From NCBI GenBank assembly GCA_036785375.1, contig JAWMAR010000971.1, positions 372,001-436,000 on the forward strand: a stretch of DNA of 64,000 bases, written 5' to 3'. The DNA is from Leucoraja ocellata (Eukaryota). The notes below the pieces were generated by a model. That model made no database searches. It had not been told where the DNA came from and saw only the letters and a program-made list of their open reading frames with translations. Each line of letters starts with the position of its first letter. Within the stretch, counting starts at the first letter, position 1. The translations under genes and the position numbers were made by a program. Shown piece by piece: positions 36,299 through 37,365 of the stretch.

Positions 36299-36427
36299 CC
36301 TTACTCAGCCCGCAATGAACCATTTGAAGCCTGAGGTCTGCGCATAACTCAAAAACAAAGGTTTCTTTGCACACAGAATGGTTTCTACAACTGAGACACA
36401 AGTATTTGATCAGGATGGAGGAAAGCC

Positions 36428-36597
36428 GGGGGTGGGAGATTGCAACCTTCACGTGGTCCGCCCTGTTTCGACGAATGCAATCAACCTGGTGTGCACAATC
36501 AAATAAGATCAAATAGAACAAGTTGTCCTGCAACTTTAGGCTCTGCACGCCATACGCAAGAAGAAGAAGAAGAAGAAGAAGAAGAAGAAGAAGAAGA
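36428..36597 (+). mobile_element. Short non-autonomous non-LTR retroelement (Ingi/Vingi-like) with 5' ribozyme and (AAG)13 tail
   Basis: TSD ggaaagcc 36420-36427 / ggaaggcc 36598-36605 (1 mismatch); starts GGGGG; ends cacgccatacgc(AAG)13; family assignment is inference. Confidence 0.75.
36429..36482 (+). ncRNA. Minimal HDV-like self-cleaving ribozyme
   Basis: P1 GGGGTGG 36429-35 / CCGCCCT 36458-64 (G1.U wobble); P2 GATTGCA 36438-44 / TGCAATC 36476-82; P3 ACC/GGT; L3 TTCACGT; G36465 for P1.1; J4/2 CGAA with catalytic-position C36472. Confidence 0.85.
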
Positions 36598-37365
36598 GGA
36601 AGGCCAACGAGTGTACTTTTCATTACAAGTGACATGCTGCCAGGAACCCAGCGAGTAAAGGCGGTAAACAAAGCCTGCACGTTTGCTGCTCGCTGGGAAA
36701 GAGCAGAGTTCATGGAGCTTCCAATTCTGCCTTCTGTTCGTCTTTGCGAGACCCAGCATGCCTTGACTGACTTAGTGCAGCCCGCCCTCCCTGCTATTCT
36801 GCAACACTCAGTGGAGAATAACCACAACTGAACAAAAATCCATCCCACTCCATCTGGAGTAGGACATAACGAGGCAGCAGTTGGACTTAAAGCAGCCATC
36901 CCACCACAAAGAAAGGACTACTGGACCACAGACTCCAAGTGGAGGAATAATCAGAGCCGCAAGACTGACAGCCCCGAAGATCAACACTCTGCAACAAGAC
37001 TGGTAAGCTGGAAACAGTCGAGGCAGTGACAATTCAGGATGTGCAGATAGACGCCTCTCTAACTGGCAGAACTAGCTTCAACCACGGAGATTTCAGGCTT
37101 ACCACGTCCCAAGAATAAGGTGGTTCATGTGTTATGTGCCAGAATGTCTCTTGCTGAATTGGAAAGCATAATCTAAAAATTGCTGCTGGCGGCTGCAGCC
37201 AAAAGTGTCAAAATAAGGAACTGCAGATGCTGACTTATACCAAAGTTATACACAAAGTACTGGAATAACTCAGCGGGTCAGACAGCATCTCCGGAGATAA
37301 TGGTTGGGTGACTTTTCGAAGAAGTGGCCCCAACCTGAAATGTCAGCCATTCTTTTTCTACAAAG

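Follow-up and report, generated by a model that had tools for sequence, protein, structure and literature searches.

What is the short repeat at positions 36418-36606 of this 64-kb stretch of DNA (the window), and where does its head, which can be drawn as a self-cleaving ribozyme, come from? The earlier note, written from the letters of the window, had described a tiny retroelement that begins with a minimal HDV-like ribozyme and continues with a body of about 75 nt and an (AAG)13 tail. The ribozyme pairings, the loop and the tail are all present in the sequence where it had placed them, with a body of exactly 75 nt and 13 AAG units. The whole repeat unit measures about 170–171 nt and occurs in thousands of copies in the genome. 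Its parts in the window copy are as follows.

36418..36428, + strand: left TSD, 11 bp, 9/11 identical to 36596-36606
36429..36482, + strand: predicted minimal (P4-less) HDV-like ribozyme, a descriptor match, predicted cut 5′ of G36429
36429..36435, + strand: P1 5′ strand, pairs with 36458-36464 in the sequence
36438..36444, + strand: P2 5′ strand, pairs with 36476-36482 through seven Watson-Crick pairs
36445..36457, + strand: P3 (36445-36447 / 36455-36457) and its 7-nt L3 (36448-36454), read from the sequence
36465..36471, + strand: G36465, which lies opposite C36450 as a single-pair P1.1, followed by 6 linker nt where P4 would be
36472..36475, + strand: J4/2, with C36472 as predicted catalytic C; C at this first position is part of the descriptor
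36429..36505, + strand: segment from the parent LINE 5′ end, ~77 nt, 83-91% identical to L121-L123, L155 and L156
36483-36557, + strand: body, 75 nt, read from the sequence
36506..36528, + strand: subfamily-specific middle, ~23 nt, unmatched in the LINE ends by alignment
36529..36557, + strand: segment from the parent LINE 3′ end, about 85-95% identical to LINE 3′ ends by alignment
36558..36596, + strand: (AAG)13 tail, with the same repeat unit as the parent LINE tail
36596..36606, + strand: right TSD, 11 bp, partner of 36418-36428

The earlier note had set the left TSD 1 nt away from the cut site; because the duplication is in fact 11 bp long (36418-36428 / 36596-36606), it directly adjoins the predicted cut, and in a near-identical duplicate of the locus it is 11/11 identical. 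Within P1 the first pair is a G.U wobble and a second wobble, U.G, lies at 36433/36460, while J1/2 is 2 nt long in the window copy. L3 retains the equivalents of U20 and G25 as T36448 and G36453, residues whose roles in the HDV-like fold, along with that of the catalytic C, have been described (PMC4836649; this and the other papers below are cited from excerpts of their text). The duplicate locus, at G000:C39:1435125-1435454 (L002, L375), is 99% identical and carries the perfect TSD and a shorter tail; it is either an uncollapsed haplotype or a recent duplication. A search for an empty site with the right flank returned just these two loci, both carrying the insertion. No host gene exceeded the Pfam cut-off among 150 of the 265 non-repeat frames of at least 55 aa, a scan that would miss short exons. 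Elsewhere in the window, an 89-bp tandem pair (977-1146) and an inverted partial copy at 1435-1483 make up a repeat at 970-1483 that is possibly a DNA-transposon end.

A genome search with the element as DNA query scored 40 among 1,183 candidates, all of them 96–100% identical, and a 17-nt core of the element has 9,043 exact matches in the genome (1,258 + 7,785), against 0 for the reversed core used as a control. A 24-nt motif from the 3′ part occurs 3,554 times, and the first 90 of these matches formed our copy sample, which, being drawn by the 3′ motif, is therefore not selected on the ribozyme. The element starts exactly at position 1, the equivalent of G36429, in 60 of the 90 copies, within 3 nt of it in 73 and within 9 nt in 79. 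TSDs flank 59/90 copies compared with 1/90 when one flank is displaced; their lengths peak at 11–12 bp, and 50 of the 59 end no more than 1 nt from base 1. The multicopy, TSD-bounded family with shared 5′ ends that the earlier note had anticipated is thus borne out, as short elements without coding capacity that amplified independently and inserted at dispersed sites with ~11-bp TSDs. Since the core is exact in 35 of the 79 near-full-length copies, we estimate roughly 20,000 5′-complete copies, about one in ten of which are duplicates, of assembly or segmental origin, given that 82/90 flanks are independent. Copies of one subfamily are spaced about 2 kb apart at G000:C1:19.26-19.43 Mb (L066-L069), and all four that were read have the same flank; the element is here part of a unit amplified in tandem.

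The proposed double pseudoknot, in which P1, P1.1, P2 and P3 can form together, holds up as a model: a strict HDV descriptor matches a single site across the two strands of the 64-kb window and nothing in 200 dinucleotide shuffles. Rfam returned no HDV-type match for the window copy, either at gathering thresholds or at E<=10. Nested folding of the 54-mer gave a z-score of +0.92, without significant stability, a value that is uninformative because ViennaRNA cannot model a pseudoknot. Only 6 nt separate G36465 from C36472, leaving no P4 helix; the missing P4 excludes the Rfam CPEB3/HDV families and fits the minimal class. In an alternative structure, G36465-C36472 and U36466-A36471 would close a UUCG loop, and the catalytic C could then be trapped.

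Covariation of the helices among copies, which the earlier note had proposed as a check, is absent: 1,114 pair cells are unchanged, 49 changed on one side, 2 on both sides and 66 broken, which is what neutral decay after insertion gives at a divergence of about 3%. The three common variants in the head are fold-neutral, falling at position 8 (in J1/2), position 32 (U.G or U-A) and position 45 (second position of J4/2). G36460 is an A in 12/12 copies of the parent LINE described below and in 21/72 short copies, with the pair kept, and the first position of J4/2 is C in 65/72 short and 12/12 LINE copies, followed by G, T, A or C. Two parent LINE copies (L123 and L151) keep all elements of the fold, and 21 of the 79 near-full-length short copies still satisfy the descriptor. 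Outside CpG sites, positions 10–54 differ at 76/2,580 sites in 72 short copies and at 14/440 in 12 LINE copies, about 3% each, and since short and long copies have decayed equally, we conclude that there was one burst, which is likely over. With 21/79 copies intact and no intact parent seen, the spread of active ribozymes would be smaller and older than the earlier note had implied.

The head of the element is not its own. In loci L091, L092 and L111, reached through a variant subfamily, the same head continues into an AP-endonuclease frame, and a LINE of ~3.0-3.1 kb shares positions 1–77 and about 100–139 of the query with the short element, its copies ending in the same AAG tail and lying between TSDs of their own. 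This LINE is compact, with a single ORF that encodes a Pfam endonuclease (APE) followed by an RT on one strand, in broken frames, with a Cys/His knuckle at the end. Among database proteins the nearest is P0001, which is intact, 1,019 aa long and 70% identical. Neither P0001 nor 9 frames from parent copies matched RNase H (PF00075), and no intact parent ORF was seen, every copy examined being broken (including 45 scored of 186,680 candidates, which is a floor). LINE 3′ ends number 464 in the genome at one mismatch; among 30 examined, 2 extend to the edge of the 1.5-kb locus, 1 belongs to a different bipartite form and the others are shorter. A genome search with Pfam PF14529 gave no match to the element in the 30 loci fetched, and a metagenome scan with P0001 gave 127 pattern matches, none of which was confirmed and none of which yielded 5′ ends from outside.

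In a short subfamily represented by L110, the LINE 5′ end is joined directly to the LINE 3′ end, whereas the subfamily of the window has about 23 further bases between them. The 5′ end, the 3′ end and the tail of the short element are therefore all those of the same LINE, and as a deletion product it inherited its ribozyme, which places it in a described class, the bipartite non-autonomous LINEs. Such elements arise by internal deletion and, in the excerpted text of PMC5786205, are reported from RTE, Ingi, Vingi and R2 only. Two further loci, L165 (883 bp) and L400 (~400 bp), hold elements derived from this parent by internal deletions that have other junctions. The earlier note had predicted a long, ORF-bearing Ingi/Vingi-type element that shares both ends, and the ~3.1-kb LINE of this genome is that element; its picture of a SINE-like borrower of an Ingi/Vingi RT stands as regards the Vingi-type partner but not as regards the relationship, as the element is a deletion product of that LINE and not an unrelated borrower.

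The parent is provisionally assigned to the Vingi type by its structure, the shape of a quick tree and one published 5′ sequence; it fits the description of Vingi in PMC13708176. The tree comprises 56 rows drawn from available proteins and loci, with unnamed references. In it the parent family groups with an Anolis protein in a clade that lacks RNase H (SH-aLRT 100), and the sister of that clade is a group that bears RNase H (SH-aLRT 90). In the same tree, the RT segment of locus L216 and the teleost-named protein P0061 have end branches of 0.077 and 0.028, a closeness that, in a host other than a teleost, would hint at horizontal transfer.

Protein searches found six further related LINE families in the genome, each with its own HDV-like fold at the 5′ end, 5′ of the endonuclease frame (representatives L198, L208, L359, L215, L373 and L371). 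Upstream of the endonuclease, a relaxed descriptor matched 15 of 50 LINE loci, compared with 0/50 on the opposite strand and 0/2,000 shuffles; among the 35 loci without a match are truncated and decayed copies, together with the 7 scanned copies of the parent family, all of them decayed. When one representative of each of the seven families is tabulated, 14 of the 16 positions of P1, P2 and P3 change on both sides, and the P1.1 pair is C-G in six of the families and T-A in the seventh. The paired share of this table (109/112 cells) is partly circular because the descriptor demands pairing; that circularity does not affect the location at the LINE 5′ end, the strand or the null. The between-family changes thus support the predicted HDV-like fold. 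The region of P4 is 19–44 nt long in the six sister families as against 6 nt here, making this the sole P4-less family of the seven. In small contigs (G000:C141, C4756, C4602, C4832, C5241 and C3108), endonuclease segments of a distant sister family lie ~1.8 kb apart, which suggests tandem arrays of a truncated LINE.

Taking this together, we consider it probable that the element arose from a Vingi-type LINE by internal deletion, is non-coding and keeps the first ~77 and last ~40 bases of the LINE, and that its predicted P4-less HDV-like ribozyme head freed its RNA at G36429 for the LINE RT to act on in trans. The element would be transcribed as part of a longer Pol II RNA, from which the ribozyme would release it by self-cleavage 5′ of G36429 through C36472; the protein of the parent ORF would then bind the 3′ end of the element RNA, where 36529..36557 is likely the signal recognized by the RT, and insertion would follow by target-primed reverse transcription.

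RNA reads bear on the cleavage step. We used a polyA RNA run (X24) from an organism whose DNA holds the same junction with 2 differences in 124 nt. From this run 683 reads aligned, all on the element and none on the flank of the window copy, and 306 of them, in the three best-supported rows, continue past the 5′ junction into other flanks, so that many transcripts cross the site uncut. The run lists no pile-up of read starts or ends, and no cut ends were seen. This counts against efficient cleavage of most copies; it does not refute activity, because about three-quarters of the copies no longer have the fold, those in antisense cannot cut and cut RNAs may vanish. At 36472, the C reads T in 42/258 reads of one orientation and 12/171 of the other in X24, whereas three contig runs give 1.5-5.7%; this excess could reflect uncut transcripts that survive or a single highly expressed locus.

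The alternative that survives best grants the same origin but has the 5′ end set by an internal Pol II promoter of the kind known as Pr77 in L1Tc, the P4-less ribozyme being slow, vestigial or an occasional trimmer of read-through RNA. Pr77 has an essential DPE, CGTG, at +25 to +28 and acts both as promoter and as ribozyme (PMC4748587), and the element has CGTG at 36452-36455, that is, +24 to +27, in a mirror of that arrangement. The lack of cut ends among the RNA reads and the loss of P4 in just this one family of seven would also be expected on such an account. Against it, CGTG occurs in four of the seven families and the fold in all seven, the parent and the short subfamilies keep every helix, P1.1 and the J4/2 C while their common variants spare the fold, and the two functions can in any case coexist. 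We therefore regard a promoter-defined 5′ end as unlikely, though deserving of weight. A conventional Pol III SINE that combines a small-RNA head with a tail from Vingi is very improbable. Its size and copy number, the absence of a TTTT run from the element, a TTCGA core at 36467-36471 and the existence of tRNA-headed SINEs with Vingi parts (PMC5786205) would suit such an element, but the element shares its head, from base 1 on, with the 5′ end of the LINE, which largely refutes this reading. In agreement with the earlier note, there are no strict Pol III A or B boxes, the best A box having 2 mismatches and the best 11-nt B box, at 36465, having 3 against the consensus sequences, and there is no head of tRNA, 7SL or 5S origin. 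A double pseudoknot that matches by chance within a repeat is scarcely credible: the lack of an Rfam match, of nested-fold stability and of covariation within the family would be in keeping with it, but shuffles gave 0/200 and 0/2,000 matches, the fold starts exactly at the element boundary and six sister families have it in the same place with other sequences.

As an internally deleted LINE that carries a predicted ribozyme, the element belongs to a class already known from NARTc and RIME, and the mechanism is established for NARTc and R2 SIDEs. The NARTc, RIME and SIDER elements of trypanosomatids, derivatives of L1Tc/ingi, are likewise short and non-coding and combine the 5′ ~77 nt of their LINE, including an HDV-like ribozyme, with its 3′ end; the ribozymes of NARTco and several SIDERs cleave in vitro (PMC4035085). 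The present family differs in residing in an animal genome, in having a parent without RNase H and in its AAG tail, and its ribozyme lacks the P4 helix that L1TcRz has. Non-autonomous derivatives of Vingi, for example of Vingi-1_EE, share the origin by internal deletion. R2 SIDEs are ribozyme-headed internal-deletion derivatives as well (PMC3414825), but R2 is specific to rDNA and uses a restriction-like endonuclease, whereas the family here occupies dispersed sites with ~11-bp TSDs. In its fold, the predicted ribozyme resembles minimal HDV-like or theta ribozymes, which also lack P4, have a short J1/2 and place the catalytic C first in J4/2; activity in vitro has been shown for HDV-like ribozymes without P4 (bioRxiv 2023.06.13.544163). 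According to the same excerpted source, minimal ribozymes lie in gut phages next to tRNAs, and a search that covered human, mouse and protist genomes found matches in bacteria only; here, by contrast, a P4-less form heads a retrotransposon with thousands of copies.

The literature searched held no Vingi ribozyme, no account of this family, no P4-less ribozyme on an animal retroelement and no link between CPEB3 and Vingi; Repbase, Dfam, patents and most subscription papers lie outside that scope, and a prior description is possible. The findings would extend 5′ HDV-like ribozymes to Vingi-type LINEs, which are unlisted in a 2018 survey, and Vingi-1, native 5′ UTR included, is used as a platform for gene insertion (PMC13708176). 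They also provide a naturally occurring P4-less predicted ribozyme from an animal, whose thousands of variants amount to a mutational series already made. Were about a quarter of the copies still able to cut, the way they are oriented in genes could show whether transcript cleavage is selected against.

With the mammalian CPEB3 ribozyme (RF00622) the element has in common the L3, the G1.U wobble, the single-pair P1.1, the GU that follows P1 and the J4/2 of the Rfam consensus (PMC4836649, in excerpt). The element itself differs from it in the sequence of P1, P2 and P3, lacks P4 and has no score on the Rfam model, and the CPEB3 ribozyme is a single conserved intronic copy. On that model, by contrast with 5 of the 8 LINE loci scanned, which gave nothing (both parent-family loci among them), family C scores 64.2 and 56.2 bits, above the cut-off of 35, and family B 24.7. 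The two scoring 5′ ends of family C are as follows.

L219:4334-4418, - strand: family C 5′ end that scores on the CPEB3 model
L208:4474-4558, - strand: family C 5′ end that scores on the CPEB3 model

By eye, the first 74 nt of Vingi-2_Gav, as given in the supplement of PMC5786205, agree in P3, L3, J4/2 and P2 with both family C and the consensus of CPEB3, and the excerpted text of that paper holds no remark on the likeness. CPEB3-related ribozymes have been reported in lamprey, lancelet and sea urchin (review PMC8256844), and the excerpts of PMC5753468 and PMC3277949 do not mention a link to Vingi. Because a sister family and Vingi-2_Gav both carry a near-CPEB3 sequence at base 1, the comparison of sequences suggests that the CPEB3 ribozyme may be of Vingi origin. 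We lean, with reserve, towards a broader reading in which the Vingi clade would be headed by HDV-like ribozymes, this family would have placed an active P4-less 54-mer at roughly 20,000 sites, and the mammalian CPEB3 ribozyme would descend from an ancient Vingi insertion of which the 5′ end was kept. Family C suggests an origin for the CPEB3 ribozyme that is specific enough to test. A further variant lies near position 1500 of L292 on the - strand, with a P1 3′ strand equal to the Rfam consensus, and a partial pattern for short derivatives of family C has 9 matches.
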